The notes below the pieces were generated by a model. It searched no databases, was not told the DNA's origin, and saw nothing but the letters and a program-made list of their open reading frames with translations. This document shows, piece by piece, positions 380 through 13,696 of a stretch of 64,000 nucleotides of DNA. The position numbers and the translations under genes were made by a program. This DNA is from a bacterium (GTDB lineage: Bacteria; UBA8248): assembly GCA_965219955.1 (NCBI GenBank), contig OZ244799.1, positions 3,072,001 through 3,136,000 of the forward strand, written 5' to 3'. Numbering within the stretch: the stretch's first letter is position 1; each line of letters begins with the position of its first letter.

Positions 380-718
380 ATGGAAATCAAGACTGAACAG
401 GAAAACGGAACCTTGGTTGTGCAGGTTGATGGCCGAATCGACGGCGCTACCGCCCCTGAATTCGAGAGCACGATAAAGAACGTAATCAGCGATGGCGACC
501 GCGCCGTCATTGTAAATTTCGAGGGTGTCTCATATATCAGCAGCGCCGGCCTCCGCGCCGTCCTGCTGGTCGCCAAGCAGCTAAGCCAAAGCAATACGAA
601 GTTCGCCCTGTTCGCGCTCGGGGAGCTGACGCGCGAAGTTTTCGAGATATCCGGTTTCGACCGCATCATACAGATCCACGAGTCGAAAGCGGACGCGCTC
701 GCCGCAACCACAAGCTGA
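380..718 (+). CDS. Anti-sigma factor antagonist (STAS domain, RsbV/SpoIIAA-like)
   Basis: 112 aa; GRID and phosphoacceptor motif YISSAGLR; GGGAGG SD upstream. Confidence 0.93.
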   Translation: MEIKTEQENGTLVVQVDGRIDGATAPEFESTIKNVISDGDRAVIVNFEGVSYISSAGLRAVLLVAKQLSQSNTKFALFALGELTREVFEISGFDRIIQIHESKADALAATTS

Positions 719-862: not shown

Positions 863-3055
863 TCACCGCGGCAACTCGATGATCATCTCCGTGAATTCGT
901 CCGGCTCGGTTTCGACCCGTATGTTTCCCCCATGCTGACGAATAATGTCGCTGGAAAGGGAAAGGCCGAGACCGGTGCCCTTGTCCGTCGGCTTGGTCGT
1001 GAAGAAGGGGTTGAATATCTTCTCGGCGACGTCGGGAGGCATCCCGCTCCCGTTGTCCCGAATGCGGACTTCAATGCCGTCCGGCCTGCACCTGGTGACG
1101 ACCTTCAGGGTGGGATCGTAGCGCGGCGCATCTTCGGCGGCTGAGGCGGCGAGACTTTTTCGTCTCTCGTCGGTGGCGTAGCAGGCGTTGCTCACCATGT
1201 TCAGGAAGACGCGGCCCAAATCCTGCGGGATGACATCGCATTCCACCATATCCGGATCCAGGTCCCAATCGAGCGTGAGGTTGAAGTTCGGGTCGGCCGC
1301 CCGGGCGCTGTGATAGGCAAGACGCGCGTGTTCCTCGATCAGGGTATTGATGTTGGTCGGCTGCGCTTCGCCCGAACCCCTGCCCATCTGGAGCATGCTC
1401 TCCACGATGTTGTTGGCCCGCTCCCCATGCTCGCGGATGCGCTGGAGGTTCCCGGTGAGGTCTTCGCCGATTTCGTTGATAATCTCGGCAGGATCCTCCT
1501 CGTCCTGTTTTTTCTCCTCCTCCTTCGCTTCCTGTCCGTTTTCCTGTCCGTTGCCGCTATGATCGAATACTTTCTCCAGCTCTTCCTTCAATTCCTCCAT
1601 CAACTCTTCGGAGACTTCCGAGAAGTTCTTGATGAAGTTCAGCGGATTCCTGATCTCGTGGGCGACGCCCGCCGTCAGTTCACCGAGCGCCGCCAGTTTC
1701 TCGCGCATGACGATCTGATCCTGCGCTTTCTCCAGATCGCCCAGCGCGCTTTCGAGTTCGTCGTTCTTGGCCTTGATCTCTTCGGCCAGTTTCTCCACCA
1801 GGTTCAGGCGCTGCACCTCCAGAGCGTGGCGGCGAAAGATCTCGAGCGCCGCGGCCATTTCCGCGACTTCGTCCTGCCCGCCGATATCGACTTTCTCCTC
1901 CAGGTCGCCGTCGGCCATGCGGCGCATGCGGTCCGAGAGACGCCCGAGCCGACGCGACAGCACACGGCCGATGAACAGCCACCCGATCAGCACGGCGCCG
2001 ATGAAGCTGATGGCGCTCAGCGCCAGCAGGATGTTGCTGCCGGTGCTGACGGCCTGGGCGGAATCCTGGGTGGCCTGGCGCGCGCTCTTGCGGGCCGTGC
2101 TCACCAGCGTTTCGGTAGCGGCAAGGATTTTCGCTTCCAGAGATTCGTGGAACGCGAGCAACTCGCCCTGTTTCCTCTCGAGCGCCAGTTCGCGGGCGCG
2201 CAGGTTGAAGCCCCCCTCCTCCCCGATGCTCAACTCGAGCATCTGTTCGAAGAGCGGCTCGAGAGCGTCGCGCACCGGAACCTTTCCGAGCGCGACCAAG
2301 CGCCGCCTGATGCCGCGCATCGTGGCCTCGAACCGCTCGCGCAGCGGCTCGAGCAGGGCGGCGTCCGATACGCTGAAGGCGGTGGCGAGAAGCTGCGCAG
2401 CGATGGTGGCGTCCGACCGCAAACCGGCGATGTAGCGGTAGAGGTTAATCCCCTCCTCCGAGAAGTGTTTCTCTCTGGAGACGGGCACCTTGTCGATTGT
2501 CCGGTAGCCCGTCATCGCGAAGAACAACTGATCGTCGATGGCGGGAACCATGACGCCGGTCAGTTCCTTGCGCACCCACGTGAGCTGGAGTTGCAGGGTA
2601 TCGCGCAGATCGGTGAGGTCGAAGCGCTGCAGCACCAGTCGTTTGATGGCGTTGAGGTTCTCGATCAGCACATTGCCGAGCTTTTTGATGCGCAAGGAGA
2701 TTTCCTCGTTGCCCCCCTGGCGTATCAGCGACGCCAGGGCCGTCTCGAACGCCTCCTGATCCTTTGCGACCTCGGTGGCTATCTGGTCCAGGTTGTCGGG
2801 ATTCACGACGGCGGCCAGGCGCGGCGCGGCAGCGACCAGGCCACTGCTTTTCTGTGCGGTCTCGAAGGCGCTCGCCAGGAACGGAACGGTGCCCTCGTTC
2901 ACGCGGTTCTGCACCTGCGCCACGAAACCGAACGAAACCCATGCGACCACGCTCGCGATGACGGTGAGAGAAGCGGCGGCGCCGATGCTGAGGTAGAGCT
3001 GCGTCGATATCTTGTAGCGTTTGTCCAGGAGGTTTTTGAGCGCGACTTTCATCAC
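863..3055 (-). CDS. Membrane sensor histidine kinase (TorS-like periplasmic helical sensor, HAMP, HisKA, HATPase)
   Basis: Two TM segments, HAMP, H-box AHEIRNPL, N-box NMVSNA, DNGSG, FFTTK, GTGLGL. Confidence 0.92.
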
Positions 3056-4236
3056 TTCTCCGGCCGCCGCATTTTTTCGGTCGGAATGTAGCGGCCGCCT
3101 TCTCCGACGACGGTCATGAAAACGGCGTCCGAACCCTGGTTGTCGCCTTTACCGTAGCGGAGCATGAATCCGCCGAGATCGATGGCGGCCACGCGGCGCA
3201 GTTCCTCGAGAAGGCAGGCGCGATCGGGATTGCGCCCGCACAGTTCGAGGGCGCGGATGGTCAGCCTGCCGGCCATATAGCCTTCGAAGGAGACGAAGCT
3301 GGGAACCGTGCCGGGTTTGTGAACCTCCAGATCCCGCCGGTAGTCCGCCGCGATCTTGAGATTTTCCGTCGTCGGGAAAGGAACCACCTGGGTGACATAG
3401 ATGCCGATGCCGGCGGGGCCGAGTTCACGCACGAGCGCATTGCTGCCCACGAACGAGATCGTCACGAAAATCGGATTGAAACCCGTATGGCGCGCCCAGG
3501 CGATGAAGGAAGCGACCGGCTTGTAGGCTCCCACGAGAACCACCGCTCCGGGGTTCACGCGCCTGATGTCGAGCAGGGCCGTCTTGACCGCCGTCGTATT
3601 CCGTGGATAGACGCCGGTGACCGCCGGTTTGAGTTTGCGCCGCTCAAGCGCGCGGCGAACGCCCCGGTAGCCCGCCAGGCCGAAAGAATCGTCCTGATAG
3701 AGCACGGCGATCTTCTTGATCCCTAAGTCGTTGATCAGCCGGTTCACCATCTCCTCGGTCTCCTGAAAGTAGGAAGCGCGCAGGTTGATCACGTTCTTCC
3801 ATTTCGGATCGCGCAAGAAGGCGGCGCCGGTGAAGGGCGCGATGTAGGGGACGCCCGCTTTTGCGGCGACCGGGGTGGCCGAGCGCGAGGTGGGCGTGCC
3901 GACGGCACCGATGAGCGCGAAGACCTTGCTCTGCTCTATCAACCGGCGCGTGTTCAGGATGGCGGCTTCGGGTTCATAGGCATCGTCGAGGGAGGTGAGT
4001 TCGAGCCGGCGCCCGTGAACGCCGCCGCGCACGTTCGCCGCACGGAAAGCGGCTTCGATGCCAAGGCGCATCTCCTCGCCCAGAGCCCTCGCGGGCCCGG
4101 TGAAGGCTGCAGATTGTCCGAAAAGGATCCGCTGGGGGGAAACGCCGGGCACGGCCGCCTGCGCTCCCGACGCCGCGCAGATGAGCACTCCGGCGAGGAG
4201 GGTGAACGCCAGGCGGATTCGTCGCGGAAGCCTCAT
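3052..4236 (-). CDS. Type I (LivJ-like) periplasmic ligand-binding protein
   Basis: Signal peptide, GQSAAFTGP, DDAYEP, IGAVGTPT, YQDDSFG; 4-bp overlap with the kinase; no permease adjacent. Confidence 0.88.
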   Translation of the reverse strand: MRLPRRIRLAFTLLAGVLICAASGAQAAVPGVSPQRILFGQSAAFTGPARALGEEMRLGIEAAFRAANVRGGVHGRRLELTSLDDAYEPEAAILNTRRLIEQSKVFALIGAVGTPTSRSATPVAAKAGVPYIAPFTGAAFLRDPKWKNVINLRASYFQETEEMVNRLINDLGIKKIAVLYQDDSFGLAGYRGVRRALERRKLKPAVTGVYPRNTTAVKTALLDIRRVNPGAVVLVGAYKPVASFIAWARHTGFNPIFVTISFVGSNALVRELGPAGIGIYVTQVVPFPTTENLKIAADYRRDLEVHKPGTVPSFVSFEGYMAGRLTIRALELCGRNPDRACLLEELRRVAAIDLGGFMLRYGKGDNQGSDAVFMTVVGEGGRYIPTEKMRRPEK

Positions 4237-4652
4237 TCACTCCTCCGCTTGACAAGGCGCATGTGGTTCTTGTTCTCCTCCCGTCGATAGGTCACATCGT
4301 CCATCATCGTCCGCACCAGGTGGATGCCGAGTCCTCCCACGGCGCGGTCTTCAATGCCCGATTCCGTGTCCGGCTCGGGCGCGTCGGTCAGGGGATCGAA
4401 CGGCCGGCCGTCGTCGATGATATCGATGATCACCGCCTCGGGGTCCGAGACGAGTTCGATGTTGATTTCACCTTCTCCGCCGCGGCTTCCGTGGTTCACG
4501 ACGTTGAGCACCAATTCTTCGAGCACGAGGTCGACCTGGAATTCGATGTCCGGCGGCCAATCCTGCTCCCGGCTGAATTCCCCGATCGCGGATTGAATGC
4601 GTGGGAGGTCGGCAGCTTCGAACCCCATTGTCAAAGATAGTTTCGCGCTCAT
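4233..4652 (-). CDS. RsbW-like anti-sigma factor / Ser kinase (HATPase_c_2)
   Basis: EELVLNVVNHG, DDGRPFDP, GGLGIHLVRTMMD. Confidence 0.92.
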   Translation of the reverse strand: MSAKLSLTMGFEAADLPRIQSAIGEFSREQDWPPDIEFQVDLVLEELVLNVVNHGSRGGEGEINIELVSDPEAVIIDIIDDGRPFDPLTDAPEPDTESGIEDRAVGGLGIHLVRTMMDDVTYRREENKNHMRLVKRRSE

Positions 4653-5866
4653 TCACTCTCTCCGCGGCGATAAAGGGTCAGGCAGGTAATGTCATCGAAT
4701 TGAGGAGCCTTGCCCGCGAAAGCATTCACCTCCTCGAAAACCTTCGTGTTGATTTCCCGGGCCGAGGCAGGCGACGAACCGCCGAGGATATCCCGAAGGC
4801 GCTCGAGACCGAACTGTTCTGCCTTCTCGTTCTCCGCCTCCGTCACCCCGTCGGTGTAGAGAATGAGGGCGTCGCCGGGAGCGAGAGTCGCGTTGTACAT
4901 ATCGTAGCTGAAATCAGGCGCGATCCCCAGAGCGACGCCCGGATCCTGGGAAAGCAAACTCGAGGAGCCGTCGGCGTGAAGGACGAGCGGGGGATTGTGG
5001 CCGCCGTTGGAGTAAACGAGTTCCCCGGTATTGGAATCGTAAATCGCGAAGAAGACGGTGACGAACATCGCGGCGTCGTTGTTCTCCTGGAGCAGGCGGT
5101 TCACCTCGCTCAGCACTTCGCCGGGGCGAAGCAGGCGGTTCACCTCGCCGAGCACATCGCCCGGATTGGCGCGCGCGACGGCGACGCTGTTGAGCAGCGT
5201 GCGGCTCGACATCATGAAAAGCGCGGCGGGCACCCCCTTGCCGGAAACGTCGGCGACCGTGATGCCGAGGCGGCCGTCGGAGAGGTCTATCACGTCGAAG
5301 AAATCGCCCCCCACGTCGCGGGCGGGCTCCATGCCCCCGAATATCTCGTAGTGGGGGCTTTCGGGAAACCGGGTCGGCAGGATCGACTGCTGCATCTTGC
5401 TGGCCAGGTCGAGGTCGCTTCTCAGCGCGACCAGCTTGTCGCGCGCCTCGAGTGCTTCGCGCAGCATGGTGAGATGCTCCAGGGTCCGCTCTATGGTGAT
5501 CCGCAAATCCTCGAAGTCGATCGGCTTGGTGACGAAGTCGAACGCGCCCCTGTTCATCGCCGTTCGAATGTTCTTCATGTCCCCGTAAGCCGAGACGACC
5601 ACGGAGCGCACGTTGGGGTCGACCGAGGGGATTTGCTTGAGCAGCGTGAGGCCGTCCATCTCCGGCATGTTGATGTCGGTGAGCACCATGTCGATAGAAT
5701 CGGCGCCGTCGTTTTCGTTCAGGCGTTCGAGCGCTTCGACTCCGTTGCGGGCGAAGACGAACGAATAGCGGCCTCTTCGAATCTCGCGCCGCATGCGCTG
5801 CAGTACGAGCTGCTCGAGATCGGGCTCGTCGTCGACCACGAGTATCCTGTGCGGCTCTTCCATCAT
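4649..5866 (-). CDS. Response regulator with PP2C/SpoIIE phosphatase (RsbU-like)
   Basis: REC (VVDDE, TDINMP, TKP) followed by VGGDFFD, ADVSGKGVPAA, YTDGVTE, DDIT. Confidence 0.93.
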   Translation of the reverse strand: MMEEPHRILVVDDEPDLEQLVLQRMRREIRRGRYSFVFARNGVEALERLNENDGADSIDMVLTDINMPEMDGLTLLKQIPSVDPNVRSVVVSAYGDMKNIRTAMNRGAFDFVTKPIDFEDLRITIERTLEHLTMLREALEARDKLVALRSDLDLASKMQQSILPTRFPESPHYEIFGGMEPARDVGGDFFDVIDLSDGRLGITVADVSGKGVPAALFMMSSRTLLNSVAVARANPGDVLGEVNRLLRPGEVLSEVNRLLQENNDAAMFVTVFFAIYDSNTGELVYSNGGHNPPLVLHADGSSSLLSQDPGVALGIAPDFSYDMYNATLAPGDALILYTDGVTEAENEKAEQFGLERLRDILGGSSPASAREINTKVFEEVNAFAGKAPQFDDITCLTLYRRGESE

Positions 5867-6303
5867 GGCCTCCCTTCCGCCAGCATCTTGTCGCGCGCCT
5901 CGAAGGCTTCCCGCACCGACTTGAGATGCTCCAGAGACCTCTCGATGGTCAGCCGCAGGTCCTCGAAATCGAGCGGCTTGTTGAGGAAATCGAACGCGCC
6001 CCTGTTCATCGCCGTGCGGATGTTCTTCATGTCCCCGTACGCAGAAACGATCACGCAGCGCAGCTTGGGGTCGAACGCCGGAATCTGCTCGAGCAGCGTG
6101 AGGCCGTCCATCTCCGGCATGTTGATGTCCGTGATGACGATGTCGATTCCATCGTCCTCGTTCAGGCGCTCGAGCGCCTCGACCCCGTTGCGGGCGAAGA
6201 CGAACGAATAGCGGCCGCTGCGAATTTCGCGCCGCATGCGCTGCAGCACCAGGCCTTCCAGGTCGGGTTCATCGTCGACCACGAGTATCTTGTACGAATC
6301 CAT
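5863..6303 (-). CDS. Single-domain response regulator, near-duplicate of the REC domain of the next gene
   Basis: VVDDE, TDINMPEMDG, NKP; shares YSFVFARNGVEALERLNE and SAYGDMKNIRTAMNRGAFDF with 4649..5866. Confidence 0.9.
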   Translation of the reverse strand: MDSYKILVVDDEPDLEGLVLQRMRREIRSGRYSFVFARNGVEALERLNEDDGIDIVITDINMPEMDGLTLLEQIPAFDPKLRCVIVSAYGDMKNIRTAMNRGAFDFLNKPLDFEDLRLTIERSLEHLKSVREAFEARDKMLAEGRP

Positions 6304-6695
6304 CGTCCGGGCCTCTCCATCCCTTAGAGTTCATCCGACCAACGATCGAGGACTTTCGAATTCCAGCTAAATGTATAGAAGACTCACGCGGCGCGCAACT
6401 CATTTCTCACTCCGCCTCGCGCCCGGACGAACCCGCGCGGCGGCCTGCAACCCCCTGAAACCATGGCTTGAGCGGCGCCCGTGCCCGGCACGAAACCGCT
6501 CGGCCGCCGGATTCGCCCATACCGGCTTCTCTTCCCGCAGGCATCCGGACCTCCCGAGCCCGTGAGGCGATTCCGCGCCGAATGTGGATAAAGCGGCGAA
6601 AATTTCATCCGCCGCCCGGTTGTCCCGGCCCTCGCATTCGCGTATCTTGGTGTACGAAGCGCCGCCATGCGCGAACCACCAGAGGAATCCCCGCT

Positions 6696-7283
6696 TTGAC
6701 CCGCAAACCCAAGAGTAAAAAGAAAGGCGCAAGAGCCGCCGGCAGAAGCGCTCCGCGCCCGGCGAGAACTGCAGGCTCGAAGAACAAAAGCACCGCCCTG
6801 TTCGTCTGGGCGCTCGCCGTCGCCGCGGTCGTCTTCGGCGTCTATTACCTGACGGCCGCATCCGCGCACAAGGCGCGCGACGTGCCTTCCCTCGGCAACC
6901 GCCACATCCGCGTCGGCACGAGCGGCGCAGTTTCCTACAACACGAATCCCCCCACCTCGGGGCCCCACTATCCGACCATCGTCTCCTGGGGCGTGCACTG
7001 GAAGCCGATCGACAAGGGCTTTCAGGTGCATAACCTCGAAGACGGCGGCGTGCTGGTGCAGTATGGCTGCACCGATTGCCCCGAACTCGTGAAAAAGCTC
7101 GAAAACCTGGTGCGCGGCTACCCGAAGTACGTCATCCTCGCCCCGTATCCCTCCATGAAGCACAGAATCGCGCTCACCGCCTGGGGCAAGATAGACACGC
7201 TGGAAGCCTTCGACGAGAAGCGCATCACCGCCTTCATCGACGCCTTTCGCGGCCTCGACCATCACCCGCGAGGGAGGAGATAG
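6696..7283 (+). CDS. DUF3105 domain membrane-anchored protein
   Basis: NPPTSGPHY and VHNLEDGGVLVQY motifs, CxxC, LTAWG; TTG start after AGAGGA; basic N-terminus then one TM. Confidence 0.8.
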   Translation: MTRKPKSKKKGARAAGRSAPRPARTAGSKNKSTALFVWALAVAAVVFGVYYLTAASAHKARDVPSLGNRHIRVGTSGAVSYNTNPPTSGPHYPTIVSWGVHWKPIDKGFQVHNLEDGGVLVQYGCTDCPELVKKLENLVRGYPKYVILAPYPSMKHRIALTAWGKIDTLEAFDEKRITAFIDAFRGLDHHPRGRR

Positions 7284-7451
7284 GGTTTCCGGAGGGAACG
7301 ACACTCTTCGGTTGACGACTTCTTTTCGCCGATCGATTCGGAGCAATGCGGGGGTGTGGAAAAAGCCTTCTCGGTTGGAATTGACGATGCATTTCGTGCG
7401 CGCCTGGATTCGGGCGTCGTTACAGAGACGGCTGATGCGGTTCACCACGAA

Positions 7452-7647
7452 GCCGTCATTCCGGCGAAAGCCGGAATCCATTTTGACTTTTCACATGGCT
7501 GGGCGGCCACAAACTTGTTGTTGCGCGGCGTTCAGATGCGGAATCCAGAGGATTCGCCTTTCGTTTTTGTTTTCGATTCTGATCCTCCCCAAAGGGAGGC
7601 GAAAAGGCAAAGGCAAAATGGATTCCGGCTTTCGCCGGAATGACGGC
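7452..7647. repeat. REP-type inverted pair, perfect 34-bp arms
   Basis: GCCGTCATTCCGGCGAAAGCCGGAATCCATTTTG at 7452-7485 and its exact reverse complement at 7614-7647. Confidence 0.9.
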
Positions 7648-7706
7648 CAAAACCCCAAGCCGAGAAATCGCTTCCTCCTCGCCGACTCTCCCTCGACTCG
7701 AAACCC

Positions 7707-7800
7707 ACCCCCCCTACCCCCCTTGTCAGGGGGGCAAGAAAAAGCAAAACCCCTCAGCCCGGCGAGAGCGCATCGCCTTTTTATACCCCCCTGACTAGGG
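7707..7800. repeat. Second REP-like inverted pair (CCTTGTCAGGGGGG / CCCCCCTGACTAGG)
   Basis: Inverted arms at about 7719-7734 and 7786-7800; the right arm appears truncated. Confidence 0.55.
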
Positions 7801-7867
7801 ATTGTTGAAAAAGCCTGTTTCGGGATCGGCGGCAAGGAGGTTCACGCGGCGCAGACGTGATGGTTTT

Positions 7868-8028
7868 GTAGGGACAGGCCTCCGTGCCTGTCCTGCTCTT
7901 CGTGGTTGTCCTTCGTCAGGACAGGCACGGAGGCCTGTCCCTACGGCGAACAATCTCAAAGGTCGGACAGGATTTTTGGGAAGCCCCGCATGGCCGATCT
8001 CTCGGGCGGCCACGGGGGGCCGCCCCTA
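7868..8028. repeat. GTAG-type REP cluster (REPIN-like)
   Basis: GTAGGGACAGGCCTCCGTGCCTGTCCT at 7868-7894, reverse complement at 7918-7944, variant ending CCCCTAC at 8028. Confidence 0.85.
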
Positions 8029-8110
8029 CGGCCTCCTTTCGAGGGGACGCGCAGGCGATTCGGAGGCGGCCGCCTCGCAAGACGCGTTGGGGATGACTCC
8101 CGCGCGCGCC

Positions 8111-9883
8111 TCAACCCCCTCCGCCGCGCACCGCTCCCGAAACTTCCACGCGAACCGTCACGATGTCCGTGTCGTGGTATTGCTGGTGGCGAACCGAAGA
8201 CGCGAGGTGGCGCAGCAGTCTGAGCGAGACTTCGCGCTCAATCGGCGCGCCGGCGGTCTGCTCGCCGAGCAGCGCGATTTTATCCTGGAGGTTCTCCTCG
8301 CCGCCCGCGGCGACGAACTCCATCACCGCGCCGCCGTCTTCCTTGTGCGCCACCACGAGGAGGCGCCTCCGCTCGCGGCTCTCGTCGGCTTCATCCGGGC
8401 GCAGGAGCGTCAGCAGCGTCTCCTCGCCCGCGGCGTCCAGGCGATGCGCCATCGCCTCATCCCATCCGCTGGCCGAGGCGAACTCGCCGAGAAACTCCCT
8501 GATCTTCGGCAAAGCGGAGATGTCGAACGCCGCCTCCATCCGGCTGCGGCGCGGTTCGGTGAATTCGACGAACAGGGTCATGATCATGGCGACGAGGCCG
8601 CCGGCCGTCATTCCGTTGTTCAGCAGGCCGCCCGCGAAGGTGGAGAAGTATTCGGGATAGATGACGCCGTTCTGGAAGCCCACGCCCGCCCAGAAGGCGA
8701 TGCCCGCCACCAGGCCCTTTCGGTAGTCGATGCCGTCCTGAATGACCATCCGCATGCCGACAATGAAGAGCATCGCCAGCAATACGGTCATGTAGGCCGC
8801 GGCGACCGGACCCGGTATCGCCAGCACCACGGCGACGAACTTGGGCAGAAACGCCAGGGAGAGGAACACCAGCCCGGCGGCGACTCCGACGCTGCGCGCG
8901 CCGACGCCGGTGAGTTCGGTGACGGAAACGCTCGTCGAATAGGTCGTGTTCGGCACCGTCGCCAAAAGGCCGGAGAGCAGGTTGCCCACCCCGTCGGCGG
9001 CCACGGCGCCCTGCACCGCCTTGAAATCCACCGCCCGGGGCCGCCGCCAGGATACGCGCTGGATGGCGGCGCCGTCGCCCACGGTCTCGATGGCGCCGAT
9101 CAGGGTCACGAAAATGAATCCCGGCAGAAGCGTCCAGAACACCGGCCCGAAGCTCAAGTCCAGGCCGGGCCACGCGCCCTGGGGAAGGCCGACCCAGGCG
9201 GCCTCCGCGACGCGGGCCGTGTCGTAGATGCCGAACCACCCGCCGACGATCGATCCGGCGACCACGCCGATCACCGGCGCCCAGAGGCGCAGCGCCCCCG
9301 CCGCCTTCAGCGCGATGCCGAGGATGACGGCTACGGTCGCCAGCGCGCTCAGCGGAGCGGCGAGCGGCGGGCTGCCCTTCGGCACGTCATCGAGCATGCC
9401 GAAGATGATGGGCATCACCGTCACCGCTATCAGCATGATGACGGTTCCCGCCACGGTCGGCGTCAGCACCCGCCGGAACAGGGAGAGCCGCTCGGAAAGC
9501 ACGAACTGAAACAGCGAGGAGGCGAGAACCAGCGTGGCGAGCATCCCCGGCCCTCCCTTGGCGAGCGCCGCGATGCAGACGGCGATGAAGGCGCCCGAGG
9601 TGCCCATGATGAGCACGTAGCCCGCGCCGAAGCGGCCGATCCGGCGAGCCTGGAGCATCGTGGTCGCGCCGCAGATCGCCAACGCGGCGAACACCGCCCA
9701 CGAGAGATAGTCCGCGGTTCCGCCGGCGGCGCGCACCACGATCGCGGGCGCGAACACGATGCCGCCCGCACACAGGGCGGCGAGCTGCAAGCCCAGGCCG
9801 AACGCGAGCAGGGGCGGCGGCTTCTCGTCGGCTTCGTAGCGTACGTCGGTGTTCGTGTGCTGGTCGGAATTCTCGGCGTTCAA
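8111..9883 (-). CDS. NCS2 (xanthine/uracil permease) family protein fused to a C-terminal degenerate RsbW-like domain
   Basis: YEADEKPP..GLQ, TPTVAG, IETVGD, ADGVGN, PNTTYS..LTG, FLPK; about 145-aa soluble tail aligns by eye with RsbW 4233..4652; TTG start after GGAAGG inferred. Confidence 0.85.
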   Translation of the reverse strand: MNAENSDQHTNTDVRYEADEKPPPLLAFGLGLQLAALCAGGIVFAPAIVVRAAGGTADYLSWAVFAALAICGATTMLQARRIGRFGAGYVLIMGTSGAFIAVCIAALAKGGPGMLATLVLASSLFQFVLSERLSLFRRVLTPTVAGTVIMLIAVTVMPIIFGMLDDVPKGSPPLAAPLSALATVAVILGIALKAAGALRLWAPVIGVVAGSIVGGWFGIYDTARVAEAAWVGLPQGAWPGLDLSFGPVFWTLLPGFIFVTLIGAIETVGDGAAIQRVSWRRPRAVDFKAVQGAVAADGVGNLLSGLLATVPNTTYSTSVSVTELTGVGARSVGVAAGLVFLSLAFLPKFVAVVLAIPGPVAAAYMTVLLAMLFIVGMRMVIQDGIDYRKGLVAGIAFWAGVGFQNGVIYPEYFSTFAGGLLNNGMTAGGLVAMIMTLFVEFTEPRRSRMEAAFDISALPKIREFLGEFASASGWDEAMAHRLDAAGEETLLTLLRPDEADESRERRRLLVVAHKEDGGAVMEFVAAGGEENLQDKIALLGEQTAGAPIEREVSLRLLRHLASSVRHQQYHDTDIVTVRVEVSGAVRGGGG

Positions 9884-10107
9884 TATCGCATCCTTCCCGG
9901 CTGGAAAACGGGTCTGTGGTGGGGCGGAAACCTGCGTCCGGTGCCCTCGCAACGGAGCGGTAAGTTTCTCACACCTCTTCCGGCCCCTCAAGAAAAAAGC
10001 CCGGCGCAAACCGTGGACGGGCGAAAATCGGCGATAGGGTGAGATGCCGGGGAGTTTCGGAAGAGGATCACTTTTTGTATTTTTTCCGGCGAAAAGTTGC
10101 ATTTTTG

Positions 10108-10135
10108 TTGACGAAGCGGCTTCGGTACATATATT
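10108..10135 (+). promoter_or_regulatory. Candidate sigma70 promoter for the RiPP precursor
   Basis: TTGACG-16 bp-TATATT with the palindrome GAAGC-G-GCTTC overlapping the spacer. Confidence 0.35.
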
Positions 10136-10284
10136 TTGGGAAGTTGTTTCTTTTGCCTGAACGGAAAATCGGCAACGCAGCCACGCTCACCCCGACGCCG
10201 GGGCATGGAGCCACGGCCAGGGAAAGAACGGAACACTGCCTGCTTCCGGGCGGGCCCGGCTCATCACCTGGAGAACTCGAAGCA

Positions 10285-10572
10285 GTGAAAACCGTAGAGG
10301 AAATACGCGAAGATATTATCAGAAAAGCAAGCGAGAACGAGGCATTCCGCGCCGAATTGCTGGCCGACCCCAAGGACGCCATCGAAAAGGAACTGGGGGT
10401 CACCATTCCCGAGGGGTTCAAGATCGGCGTTCACGAAGACAACATCATGAGCATCAACCTGGTGTTGCCTCCGGCCGAGTTGAGCGAGGCGGACCTGAGC
10501 GCCGTCGTGGCCGGCTCGCAGTCGTGGCAAGACTTCGCCAACGCCTGGAACAGCTTGAACCAGAACTCCTGA
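10285..10572 (+). CDS. NHLP (nitrile hydratase-like leader) RiPP precursor, 95 aa
   Basis: IIRKASENEAFRAELLADPKDAIEKELG..VHED..LVLPP..ELSEADLSAVVAG leader; core SQSWQDFANAWNSLNQNS; GTG start after GGAG. Confidence 0.88.
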   Translation: MKTVEEIREDIIRKASENEAFRAELLADPKDAIEKELGVTIPEGFKIGVHEDNIMSINLVLPPAELSEADLSAVVAGSQSWQDFANAWNSLNQNS

Positions 10573-10769
10573 TGCGGTATACTGAAAAAGTTCCATAATC
10601 TACTTGACAGGTTTGCCGAAACGCCCCGGGGAGAGGGTTGGTTAAGGATGCCGTATTGTGGGTTCGATCGGCTCTGTGGCCCGCTTCGCTGAAGAGAGGC
10701 CGGGGAGCCGGACCCGGTCATCACCGCCTTCCCCCCCAATGTCTGTATCCCGTTCAGGAACAGGGTTCG

Positions 10770-11867
10770 ATGATGTCTGAGAATTTCCGGGACGTCTTTC
10801 CAAGGTTGCGCCGCTTCGTTCCACCGGCCCTGCTCGATGGCCCGTGGTGGGAGCGCCTGGTGGATCGCGTCGGGGAGCTCCCGAGCTGGCTGACCCTGAA
10901 TTACGCGGCCTTCGAGTTCCGGCTGGGAGACGCTGCGCCCGCCGCCGACTATTTCGTATCGGTTACGCCTGATCGCCCGTCCATGGAGTATTACGTTCGC
11001 CTGGGCGAGGATGCAAAGCCCGACTCCCCGGAGGCGGCCCTCGGCCGGGTCTACTCCCTCATGAACGGGGCGGGTCCCCCTTCCGAACCCTCTCTCGCCG
11101 GCTGGTTCAGGGCGTCGATGCTCGAGTACGACATCGCGGAGGTCCCCTCGAACCTGAACCCGGCTCCGGGCGTGTTCCTGGCGCTCAAGCCTCAATCCGA
11201 ACTGAATGAAGAGGTCGCGGGCTCAAGAACGCCCCGCCGCCTGGCCGCCACCATCGCGAGCGCCGCGGGGTGGGAGGAAGACGAGGAGGAGCGCCTCGCC
11301 GTGGAGCGGACCTTCGCCGCCCTGCCCCGCACCGGCGTGGTGGACCAGATCGGCGCCGTGCCCGAGCGCGGGCCGCGATCCATCCGCCTGATCGTGGACG
11401 GGTTGAAACTGCGCAACGTGCCCGCGTTCCTGAAGCGGCTGAAATGGGACGGCTCCACCCGGAAAGTGATGGACACGCTGGAGGAGATGCGCGACATGAC
11501 GCCCGTCTTCCGGCTGGCGCTGGACGTCGCGGCGAACGGCGTGGGGCCGCGCCTGGGTCTGGAGATGTACAGGCCGAGGAAACCCTCGAACCTCGACTAC
11601 TGGCTGACGTCGGGGCGCAACGCCTGGCGTCCCGTCGTGGACTACCTCGAGCAGATGGAATGGTGCCTGCCGGAGAAAGGAGACGGCCTCCGCGCCTTCC
11701 CGGGAATCGAGCGGCTCTTCGAGGAAAAGGGCATGTCCATCCTCTACAAGGGAATCAACCACTTCAAGCTGTCCATCGAGGGCGACGCCGTGGAAGCCAA
11801 GGCCTACGCCGCCCTCGCCTACTTCCGTCTCTACGCCGATTCCGAGGGGGAGGCGGGGGCTCTTTAA
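10770..11867 (+). CDS. Putative RiPP-modifying enzyme, probably ABBA-barrel peptide prenyltransferase-like
   Basis: Motif series AFEFRLG..LEYD..PGVF..IRL..LDV..GPRLGLE..CLPEK..INHFKL..EAKAY matches a family I recall beside NHLP/Nif11 precursors; function is inferred. Confidence 0.6.
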   Translation: MMSENFRDVFPRLRRFVPPALLDGPWWERLVDRVGELPSWLTLNYAAFEFRLGDAAPAADYFVSVTPDRPSMEYYVRLGEDAKPDSPEAALGRVYSLMNGAGPPSEPSLAGWFRASMLEYDIAEVPSNLNPAPGVFLALKPQSELNEEVAGSRTPRRLAATIASAAGWEEDEEERLAVERTFAALPRTGVVDQIGAVPERGPRSIRLIVDGLKLRNVPAFLKRLKWDGSTRKVMDTLEEMRDMTPVFRLALDVAANGVGPRLGLEMYRPRKPSNLDYWLTSGRNAWRPVVDYLEQMEWCLPEKGDGLRAFPGIERLFEEKGMSILYKGINHFKLSIEGDAVEAKAYAALAYFRLYADSEGEAGAL

Positions 11868-12081: not shown

Positions 12082-13696
12082 CAGCCTGTCGGGCTTTGGC
12101 CTGCCAAGGAGTTCGAAGCACCAATCGTGGGAGTGATTTTCGGGGTTCTTCTCGGTAATCGATTCTTGTTGGCCGGCGATTCGGTGTCAGGAGCCATGAT
12201 CGGCCCTCACAGGCCCGGTGGGAGTCATAGCGGCCGGCAACAGGCCACGGGACGAGGGCGTTTATCCTCCGATCACGCCGACTTCAGGTTGTGCAGACGC
12301 TTGCAGTTATAAGCCAGCATCACCAGGACCCACTCGCCCTGCACCTTCTCGAGACCGCGCAAGAGGAACTGCCGGAAGCCCATCGCCTGCTTGACGATGC
12401 CGAACACCGGCTCCACCGTCTGCCGCCGCAGGCGATAACGGGCGCGCTCTTCCGGCTTCGCCATCTTCGCGCGCATCGCCGCAATCCACTCCGCTCGAAC
12501 TTCCGGACCTGGCCGGGAAGCCACCGGTGGCCGGAAGTCGTGCCGACGGCGCCCCCCTTCGGCTTGCGTGGCCACCAGAACCTCGACGCCCCGTCTCTCG
12601 AGTTCTTCCACTTCGCTGCCCGTCGCGTAGCCGCTGTCCGCCAACACACGCGCCGGCGCGGCAACCGAAGGCGGAATCGCCTCCACGTCCGCCACCAGTT
12701 CCCCGCGGTCGCTCGCGTTGTTGCTCACACGCGCTCCCAGCACCAACTGGCTGCCTTCGGCATCCACCACCGCCTGCGCGTTGTACGCCTGGCGATACTC
12801 GTGACGCTTGCTCTTGCGCATCAAGGCGCTGTCCCCATCCGTCAGGTTGATCTGCCGCCCCTCTTCGGGCTTCTCCCGAGGGGGCTTGATGCGCGGACCC
12901 TTCCTCCGACCTGAACGGCGCTCCCGAGACGCCGCCTTGCGTTCATATTCCGCCCGACCCGCCTCGGCCGACCTCTTCGCGCGGCGCTCCAGTTCCGCGC
13001 ACGCCGCATCCAGCTTCGACTTCAACTCCTCGCGACGCGCCAACTCCTCCGGCAGCGCCTGCGGATCCCCTACCTCCTGCGCATCTTCGCTCTCCGCACG
13101 CTCCAGCAACTCCTCGACCTCTCCGCGCAATTGAGAGCCCAACGCCTGCGCACGGTCATACCGGACGTTGTTGTGCTTGCTCGCGTTCGCGTCCACCTTC
13201 GTCCCGTCCACGCTCACCGTCCCGACCCGCAACAACTTCAACTCCTTCGCCAGCAGCAAAACCTGCTCGAACGTCTCCGCTATCGCCTCGAAGTTATCGC
13301 GACGGAACGCGCAGATCGTGTCGTGGTCCGGGTGTGTGTTCGACGCCACGTATCGAACCCCGATATCCCGGTACGTCGCGCGCTCGATCCGGCGCGAACC
13401 GAATATCCCGTTCGCGTAGCAGTAAATCAGCAGCGCCAGCATCATCCGGGGATGGTACTGCGCTGAACCCGTGCCGCGCTCGTTCACGCGGAATGACCCC
13501 AGAGGCACCCGTTCCACCGCCTCCACTACGAAGTGCGCCAGATCGTCCTCCGGCAACCACTCCCGCATGTCCACAGGAAGAAGATACAACTGCGACTGAT
13601 TACAATCTACAAACTTCGCCACCCCAATCCCCTCCCTTAAAAATACCTCGCGAGAACGACATATTATAAAAGGTAGGGCCTAAGTCCGACAGGCTG
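12082..13696 (-). mobile_element. IS1182-family insertion sequence, about 1.6 kb, apparently intact
   Basis: TIRs CAGCCTGTCGGGCTTTGGCC and CAGCCTGTCGGACTTAGGCC (reverse complement at right end); CTAA direct repeats at 12078-12081 and 13697-13700. Confidence 0.9.
12273..13622 (-). CDS. IS1182-family DDE transposase
   Basis: LLPVDMREWLPEDDLAHF, YHPRMML, PDHDTI, VDGTKV, YNAQ, LADSGY, VEPVFG..K. Confidence 0.93.
   Translation of the reverse strand: MAKFVDCNQSQLYLLPVDMREWLPEDDLAHFVVEAVERVPLGSFRVNERGTGSAQYHPRMMLALLIYCYANGIFGSRRIERATYRDIGVRYVASNTHPDHDTICAFRRDNFEAIAETFEQVLLLAKELKLLRVGTVSVDGTKVDANASKHNNVRYDRAQALGSQLRGEVEELLERAESEDAQEVGDPQALPEELARREELKSKLDAACAELERRAKRSAEAGRAEYERKAASRERRSGRRKGPRIKPPREKPEEGRQINLTDGDSALMRKSKRHEYRQAYNAQAVVDAEGSQLVLGARVSNNASDRGELVADVEAIPPSVAAPARVLADSGYATGSEVEELERRGVEVLVATQAEGGRRRHDFRPPVASRPGPEVRAEWIAAMRAKMAKPEERARYRLRRQTVEPVFGIVKQAMGFRQFLLRGLEKVQGEWVLVMLAYNCKRLHNLKSA

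Follow-up and report, generated by a model that had tools for sequence, protein, structure and literature searches.

The window analysed here is a 64,000-nucleotide (nt) stretch of contig OZ244799.1 (assembly GCA_965219955.1; positions 3,072,001 to 3,136,000, forward strand) from a bacterium placed by GTDB in the lineage UBA8248. On its minus strand lies a gene for a fusion protein: a permease of the NCS2/NAT family followed by a tail with the predicted fold of the partner-switching kinase RsbW, and on the far side of one opposite-strand gene lies a partner-switching module with an RsbW of its own (Table 1). The reading frame that ends at 8111 is open as far back as 10102. Taking the TTG at 9883 as the start gives a protein of 590 amino acids (aa), and the relative P0002 has an equal length and N-terminus. 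Other 590-aa relatives share both protein ends with the window fusion; the coordinates 8111..9883, proposed in a first-pass annotation made from the sequence alone, are correct, since these relatives begin at the position of that TTG.

Two parts can be told apart in the protein. First, the Pfam model Xan_ur_permease (PF00860) matches residues 30-402 (E 4.7e-43, 147.8 bits against a cut-off of 27), and it also matches all 40 members of a family alignment (A2). Second, the final 150 residues have no significant match in Pfam, and neither Pfam nor NCBIfam holds a model for the tail; a match to Pfam DUF5691 lies below the cut-off (E 0.018, or 0.001 with the tail alone), occurs in only 2 of the 40 members and was set aside. 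The AlphaFold2 model of the full-length protein (predicted local distance difference test, pLDDT, 83.5) has helices across residues 24-442, with strands at 93-95 and 312-314. The linker is short: the last membrane helix ends at 442, and the first strand of the tail (447-452) starts about five residues further on. Every structural statement made here rests on predicted models.

Table 1. Features of the fusion gene and of the neighbouring module, in window coordinates; the last row belongs to a related locus (L017). TM, transmembrane helix; aa, amino acids.
Feature	Coordinates	Strand	Remarks
NCS2 permease-pseudokinase fusion, whole gene	8111..9883	-	590 aa; TTG start 9883, stop codon 8111-8113
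Membrane domain, residues 1-442	8558..9883	-	NCS2/NAT 7+7 fold (predicted); short strands in TM3 and TM10
TM1 motif, Q33-L34	9782..9787	-	Gln-His in canonical NATs
TM8 motif, E266-T-V-G-D270	9074..9088	-	canonical Glu-x-x-Gly-Asp retained
TM10 region, residues 309-326	8906..8959	-	altered NAT signature
C-terminal cytoplasmic domain, residues 447-580	8144..8545	-	predicted RsbW/SpoIIAB-type GHKL fold without ATP-binding motifs
E487-E488, retained Glu pair of former N-box	8420..8425	-	aligned with EE of RsbW
Free STAS protein	380..718	+	anti-sigma antagonist type, conserved Ser loop; Pfam STAS E 7.8e-21
Partner-switching and two-component module	863..6303	-	Pfam; same strand as permease
Histidine kinase (HAMP)	863-3055	-	Pfam
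Periplasmic binding protein (Peripla_BP_6)	3052-4236	-	Pfam
RsbW kinase	4233-4652	-	Pfam
REC-PP2C phosphatase	4649-5866	-	Pfam
REC protein	5863-6303	-	Pfam
DUF3105 gene	6468..7283	+	Pfam E 2.2e-26
Genes beside a fusion in L017	11153-11425, 12033-13130, 13143-15479		NHase_alpha-like ORF, homologue of the 409-aa protein, YcaO

A degenerate RsbW-type tail on an NCS2 carrier

The tail was compared with its relatives in an alignment (A1) of the last 160 residues and 44 relatives at 34-72% identity (45 rows). Its AlphaFold2 model (pLDDT 84.5, predicted template modelling score 0.77) consists of a strand, two helices, two strands, a short helix, an ill-defined loop, a helix and two strands, and the same elements recur at residues 447-580 of the full-length model. 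The best solved matches in Foldseek, a check that the first-pass annotation had proposed, are the partner-switching anti-sigma kinases UsfX (E 5e-7), SpoIIAB, RsbW and the RsbW domain of Rv1364c (to 5e-4); histidine-kinase domains rank lower (E at least 1e-3). VIA, a fold search independent of Foldseek, ranks the matches alike: UsfX has a Z of 14.4 (root-mean-square deviation 2.7 over 115 residues), followed by RsbW (13.7), Rv1364c (13.5), SpoIIAB (13.2) and SiaB (11.1), then by the Leptospira regulator LvrC (10.2), with ordinary histidine-kinase ATP domains at 7.2 or less. The modelled tail thus has a GHKL fold of the RsbW/SpoIIAB/UsfX (HATPase_c_2) type, as the first-pass annotation had supposed. 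Its fold and succession of elements agree with those of these three proteins: a strand comes first, then two helices and two strands, then the lid, and last a helix and two strands (VIA Z 13.2-14.4, with 103-130 residues aligned). A pair of Glu residues at the beginning of the N-box helix is shared as well. The three differ in being free 140-aa proteins with ATP motifs, whereas the tail is fused to a 14-helix transporter and lacks those motifs.

The link to RsbW in sequence is real but weak, and is limited to the first half of the tail (helices 1-2). There, BLASTP aligns the tail with the neighbouring RsbW (4233..4652) over 47 aa at 26% identity (pairwise E 4e-6), and hhalign aligns 50 columns with a probability of 67%. 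The first-pass annotation had aligned the two proteins by eye over two stretches, of which the first stood. The second did not: the global-alignment z of 5.0 overall (500 shuffles) is -0.3 for the C-terminal half, and the stretches in question (IEREVSLRLL... against EDRAVGGLG...) are equivalent by predicted fold only, the order of strands and helices matching. With the window RsbW as query, phmmer also matches the fusion open reading frame (ORF) of a related locus (L038; E 2.8e-4 among 15,449 ORFs). The HATPase_c_2 model itself (PF13581) has no match in the window tail at E<=0.1; it reaches 6 of 40 relatives when E<=1 is allowed (0.0062 at best) and also the tails of 3 of the 52 fusion copies found in 25 further genomes, one of them at 29.1 bits, above the cut-off of 27.4. 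In the ESM Atlas, 15% of the members of the nearest cluster (score 0.93) have HATPase_c_2, which is no more than a lead. A search of PDB sequences with the family profile returned transporters only, with no GHKL chain at E<=10, so that the link to RsbW required fold comparison.

GHKL proteins hold Mg-ATP through the Asn of the N-box, the Asp-x-Gly of the G1 box and the Gly-x-Gly-x-Gly of the G2 box. In column statistics from 203 non-identical family rows, in which motif positions past residue 495 were equated with those of RsbW by the order of predicted elements and not by residue-level structural alignment, the N-box Asn position holds Thr (133), Ser (42), Ala (10) or Cys (6), the G1 Asp positions hold Ala, Ser, Val or Gly, and the G2 glycine region reads Glu-Arg-Glu-Val-Ser. 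The first-pass annotation had reported the N-box Asn, the DxG Asp and the GGLG loop as missing from the window protein, and they are absent both from it and from the 203 family rows; judged from these rows, the loss is a family-wide trait. The tail is a predicted pseudokinase: as the Mg-ATP-binding residues are lost, it cannot be a kinase.

What the family has kept in their stead is distinctive. The best-conserved tail residues are H566 and the retained Glu pair, E487 (199 of 203 rows) and E488 (203 of 203), which is invariant in alignments A1 and A2. R481, L493, L508, L521-E522-F523, N531 and D534 are also conserved, as are S553-L-R555-L-L-R-H559, S563, V564, Y569, D573 and V579; E487, E488, N531, D534, R555 and H566 are each kept in at least 95% of rows. 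Positions 540-548 are the least conserved and are modelled with low confidence (pLDDT 54-68). An inert relic, retained for folding or stability only, would account for the loss of all catalytic motifs, but it is a highly improbable explanation for a tail that is strongly conserved across nine named phyla, down to polar residues of surface type at 95% or above.

The membrane domain is a divergent member of its family. A profile search of the PDB finds UapA (E 5.6e-36) and UraA (E 3.6e-21), and the permease motifs were scored by alignment to UapA and 139 full-length family members. The canonical NAT motifs of TM1, TM8 and TM10 were taken as they are defined in the available part of PMC5972032. 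In TM1, where canonical NATs have Gln-His, the family has Gln (132 of 139) followed by Leu (112 of 139), and the window protein departs from the canonical form. In TM8, the window protein keeps the canonical residues, which are less uniform in the family (Glu in 96 of 139, Asp in 102), the Glu being replaced by Gln, Lys, Arg or His in 40 of 139 members. In TM10, the window protein reads T-Y-S-T317-S318-V-S320-V-T-E-L-T325-G326: the T314-Y-S start and the T325-G326 end are retained, but of the canonical Q/E/P-N-x-G the first position has become T317, the Asn S318 and the Gly S320 (signature positions 4, 5 and 7), and in the stretch from T317 to G326 only the final two positions fit. Across the 139 members, position 317 is Thr in 78 and Ser in 34, and position 318 is Ser in 116; two members (P0101 and P0117) have changed the signature further. 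The alignment thus bears out the motif changes read from the window sequence in the first-pass annotation (TM8 ExxxD kept, TM1 QH to QL, signature (Q/E)N to TS). NCBIfam scores are likewise below threshold (pbuX, TIGR03173, 189.7 against 414.15; ncs2, 172.4 against 291.8).

With UapA, XanQ and UraA the fusion therefore shares the Xan_ur_permease domain, the Glu-x-x-Gly-Asp of TM8 and the opening T-Y-S of the TM10 motif; it differs from them in a Gln-Leu in place of the Gln-His of TM1, in its sub-cut-off NCBIfam scores and in the extra 150-aa tail. The available part of PMC5972032 mentions divergent prokaryotic NAT branches without known function and gives no description of them. The NAT signature has Thr/Ser-Ser where the Gln/Glu-Asn pair would stand, and for this reason the substrate of the fusion carrier is probably something other than a canonical nucleobase, and the annotation “purine/pyrimidine permease” probably misnames the solute, given the family's own altered substrate motif.

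The family and its genomic neighbourhoods

The fusion defines a large family that lacks annotation and spans uncultured bacteria from nine named phyla. A search with the tail returned 3730 proteins at E<=0.001 from a collection clustered at 90% and 618 clusters from a library clustered at 50%, and PF00860 is present in 119 of the 120 best-listed matches (the exception is P0018). The tail occurs in at least 479 confirmed places in species-representative genomes. Genomic context was covered for the best 80 of these loci (L001-L080) and for 28 further genomes. The best 80 loci all come from metagenome-assembled genomes (MAGs), assigned to the nine phyla named, and tail identity across them is 63-99%. 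The copy number per genome runs from one to four (25 genomes). Three Nitrospirales genomes (G026-G028) have three copies apiece, and genomes of about 2.5 Mb have three. The window genome has two; the tail of the second copy (L091; G000 C1 4005619-4006074) is 64% identical, and this copy lies about 0.9 Mb away with no partner-switching neighbour.

The tail belongs to the transporter, since it is about as conserved as the membrane part (mean pairwise identity 0.63 and 0.66, respectively, in 4000 sampled pairs). Among the 150 best of the 618 clusters, none joins the tail to any other complete domain. Stand-alone tails were considered and rejected: the six short sequences in A1 all begin within the last membrane helix and are fragments. 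Eleven tail matches of odd length comprise two with Xan_ur_permease, one with a DctM fragment and eight without any domain. The DctM-fragment protein (P0131) and a protein with an integrase-like N-terminus before the tail (P0018) look chimeric or misassembled. In the fusion tree the phyla are intermixed, with an Actinomycetes MAG (L036) inside an alphaproteobacterial clade and a gammaproteobacterial one (L070) inside another; judging by the tree, either genes are frequently transferred between uncultured bacteria that co-occur, or binning is at fault.

The partner-switching module beside the window fusion comprises six genes, for a periplasmic binding protein (PBP), a histidine kinase (HK), a REC protein, a REC-PP2C phosphatase, RsbW and the free STAS protein, and Pfam finds no sigma-factor gene among them. 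Its RsbW is the sole small HATPase_c_2 gene in the 4.28-Mb window genome, and S54 and S55 of the STAS protein are invariant in an alignment of that protein (A3). Many other genomes have an orthologue of the STAS protein (47-62% identity), and in some of them the fusion lies elsewhere. The distance from the module to the permease is 1.8 kb, across the DUF3105 gene and a palindrome-rich spacer of about 800 nt (7300-8100). Because this opposite-strand gene and the spacer separate them, the permease and the module do not form one operon. Promoter-like matches near the permease gene were found on the other strand only. Within the spacer, the segment 7450-7950 has a lower G+C content (0.58) and carries the inverted repeats I1, I2 and I5; its three strong palindromes, of 39, 28 and 26 nt with complementarity of 97%, 100% and 81% respectively, resemble repetitive extragenic palindromic (REP)-like elements. 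In the relative L002, a carbonic-anhydrase gene takes the place of the spacer.

The first-pass annotation had proposed that the free STAS protein docks on the tail, and had made the lack of an association of such fusions with partner-switching genes one of its grounds for refutation. The 80 loci were searched by tblastn with the module proteins and by profile and phmmer searches of their 15,449 ORFs, with flanks of up to 10 kb per side. STAS, RsbW and PP2C genes are present in 11 loci of the window's clade, fragments of the module lie on two short contigs of the same clade (L009 and L013), and the whole module lies beside the fusion in one Nitrospirales locus (L051). In the other 66 of the 80 loci, no STAS, RsbW or SpoIIE gene was found within the available flanks, and among 130 ORFs that a rough ad hoc caller placed no more than 4 kb from the fusion in 18 of the loci, Pfam found no STAS, RsbW or SpoIIE domain, no recurrent operon partner and no sigma-factor gene (the ORFs include TRAP transporters, an Mrp antiporter, a polyketide synthase, sulfatases and YCII). 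In the 25 further genomes, 47 of the 52 fusion copies have no small RsbW gene within 60 kb, and four adjoin one, three of them in the window's clade and one in a Nitrospirales genome (G013). An RsbW and PP2C pair about 12 kb from the fusion in G019 (L099) was not counted, as about 0.5 such cases in 47 copies are expected by chance on a rough estimate. For the family as a whole, the association is mostly negative.

Where it occurs, the linkage is real and is conserved in two lineages with differing gene order, the window's clade and four Nitrospirales genomes. In the latter the order is MreB, fusion, RsbW, STAS, REC-PP2C, PBP, HK (L051, L092 and L098, and in part L093, whose contig ends after RsbW), and the other fusion copies of those genomes have no partner-switching neighbour. 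The linked copies form two clades in the fusion tree, although a tree that joins both is not rejected (log-likelihood difference 5.3, approximately unbiased (AU) test p 0.12). The linkage thus arose once or twice and was kept despite rearrangement; it is suggestive for these lineages but no family property. Coupling to the neighbouring cascade is possible only in the window's lineage.

One form of coupling would be direct. The unphosphorylated STAS protein would dock on the tail, and the PBP-HK-REC-PP2C-RsbW cascade would thereby gate transport, or else the tail would be a membrane-bound decoy that rivals RsbW for STAS. The tail has the predicted fold of the proteins in solved STAS complexes (8ih8, 6m36/6m37, 1th8), its helices 1-2 are the part closest to RsbW in sequence, and the module, which holds the genome's only small RsbW gene and adjoins the fusion in 13 loci of the window's clade and, rearranged, in Nitrospirales L051, L092, L093 and L098, has its output left open by the lack of a sigma-factor gene among its six genes. 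Docking is nonetheless unlikely, if credible. Most copies have no such neighbour, the window genome's own second copy lies far from the module, the permease stands outside the module operon, and the two linked lineages may share one origin and so represent a single event. The ATP-lid region, moreover, is part of the STAS contact in RsbW-type kinases, and it corresponds to the tail segment with the weakest conservation and the lowest model confidence (540-548). A complex prediction for the tail (A1; residues 12-155 of the 160-aa stretch) and the STAS protein (A3) gave ipSAE values of 0.05 and 0.07 (mark 0.32) and, being without controls, counts neither way.

The linkage could also reflect shared physiology, in which the PBP and the kinase sense the transported solute, or one akin to it, and permease expression is set by the cascade, the tail being independent of that cascade. 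Neighbourhoods that combine a sensor with a transporter are common, the module includes both a HAMP histidine kinase and a Peripla_BP_6 protein, the permease is transcribed as a unit of its own, and the linkage is confined to part of the family; yet no promoter or regulator site was found for the gene beyond the matches on the other strand, and this explanation is doubtful.

A further alternative is that the protein works as a receptor (a transceptor or anti-sigma role): the membrane domain would sense a solute instead of carrying it, and the tail would keep a sigma factor, another transcription factor or the true RsbW at the membrane until the transport cycle releases it. The closest folds are anti-sigma factors, and UsfX, the top fold match, is reported to act without kinase activity. 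Substrate-site residues also vary in the family (loss of the TM8 Glu, and the further changes in P0101 and P0117) while the tail is conserved. Against this, the window protein retains the TM8 Glu and Asp and the NCS2 core, as a working carrier would, the neighbours scanned include no sigma-factor gene, and one to four copies per genome suit nutrient carriers better than regulators. Such a role is very unlikely.

Possible roles of the tail

Carriers with a fused cytoplasmic regulatory domain and pseudo-GHKL domains are known kinds, and the fusion combines them. A parallel exists with SLC26/SulP carriers, which likewise consist of a 7+7 inverted-repeat carrier and then a cytoplasmic domain from the partner-switching toolkit. 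In SLC26 the STAS domain follows the 7+7 membrane domain and is required for stability and function, according to the available part of PMC8256260. The two differ in that a SulP carrier bears the antagonist-side STAS domain, whereas here an NCS2 carrier bears the kinase-side RsbW-like fold. CbrA and CrbS, in which a solute symporter domain is fused to a histidine kinase with active HisKA and HATPase_c domains, also join a secondary carrier to a GHKL-fold signalling domain, but their kinase is active and their carrier belongs to another family, whereas the tail of the fusion is RsbW-type and catalytically dead. Among related carriers, SLC26 and SLC4 are known to have structured regulatory domains in the cytoplasm. 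A full-text literature search found none described for NCS2/SLC23-type carriers, nor any NCS2 carrier with an RsbW-like or GHKL domain, and as far as that search shows the combination in NCS2 is new. The fusion gives NCS2 a cytoplasmic domain from the partner-switching toolkit in catalytically dead form, and it opens to test the gating of an elevator-type carrier from inside, the binding partners of pseudo-GHKL domains, and the action of sigma-less cascades on transporters.

The explanation favoured here is that the fusion would be a non-canonical NCS2/NAT secondary transporter with a built-in cytoplasmic pseudokinase domain, and that the tail would act in cis, as a cytoplasmic module that dimerises and regulates the transporter, occupying the place that STAS has after TM14 in SLC26/SulP carriers. 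Domains of the RsbW type form dimers, and so do working NCS2 transporters, which pair through gate domains that include TM14; since both are dimeric, two tails would pair beneath the dimer interface. The polar patch at the former nucleotide pocket (R481, E487, E488, N531, D534, S553, R555 and H566) would bind a cytoplasmic ligand or protein, and what is bound there would set transport activity. The neighbouring partner-switching cascade could serve as the regulator in the window's lineage, but the family overall is independent of such a neighbour. A cis-acting tail whose polar patch binds a ligand or protein has about an even chance of being right. The absence of a conserved neighbour outside the two lineages is as expected of a self-contained unit.

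Several points weigh against a cis-acting regulatory tail. A protein interface would account for the conserved polar residues equally well. The position of the fusion beside a PBP-HK-REC-PP2C-RsbW-STAS module in two lineages seems to exceed chance and argues for some coupling to partner switching there, and it is possible that the tail acts in trans. All 25 other fusion-bearing genomes also have an RsbW-type gene somewhere, a co-occurrence that was set aside as uninformative, as 11 of 14 control genomes pass the cut-off too.

A bolder variant would make the tail a membrane-anchored decoy anti-sigma domain that binds unphosphorylated STAS or pairs with RsbW without phosphorylating, so that the output of the switch and the flux of the solute control one another. 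It is rather unlikely. If it were true, NCS2 would carry the “kinase half” of a partner switch as SLC26 carries the “antagonist half”, and contacts between both transporter classes would be conceivable. The window genome has four STAS domains in long ORFs of 497-638 aa, three of them in tandem (G000 C1 4170390-4174145, 468092-468334). These are probably SulP-type transporters, in which case the genome holds both STAS-tailed and RsbW-tailed 7+7 carriers.

Other neighbours of the permease

On its other side, the permease gene faces a divergent small ORF (10039-10572, plus strand) with a weak, sub-cut-off match to the nitrile hydratase alpha subunit (E 0.0036), which resembles a nitrile hydratase leader peptide (NHLP)-type peptide precursor. 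It adjoins a gene for a 409-aa protein without a Pfam family (10638-11867, plus strand). Just past the latter lies an insertion sequence (IS)-type DDE transposase (12273-13622, minus strand; DDE_Tnp_1 E 1.5e-19, DUF772), which is a recent insertion in this genome, being absent from all 80 related loci. The small ORF and the gene for the 409-aa protein are conserved in 9-10 loci of the window's clade. In a gammaproteobacterial MAG (L017), a homologue of the 409-aa protein with 30% identity lies beside the fusion permease, together with a more clearly NHase_alpha-like ORF of 91 aa (E 6.9e-8) and a YcaO cyclodehydratase. These genes may form a cluster for a peptide natural product, and they may represent a second neighbour that recurs beside the permease.

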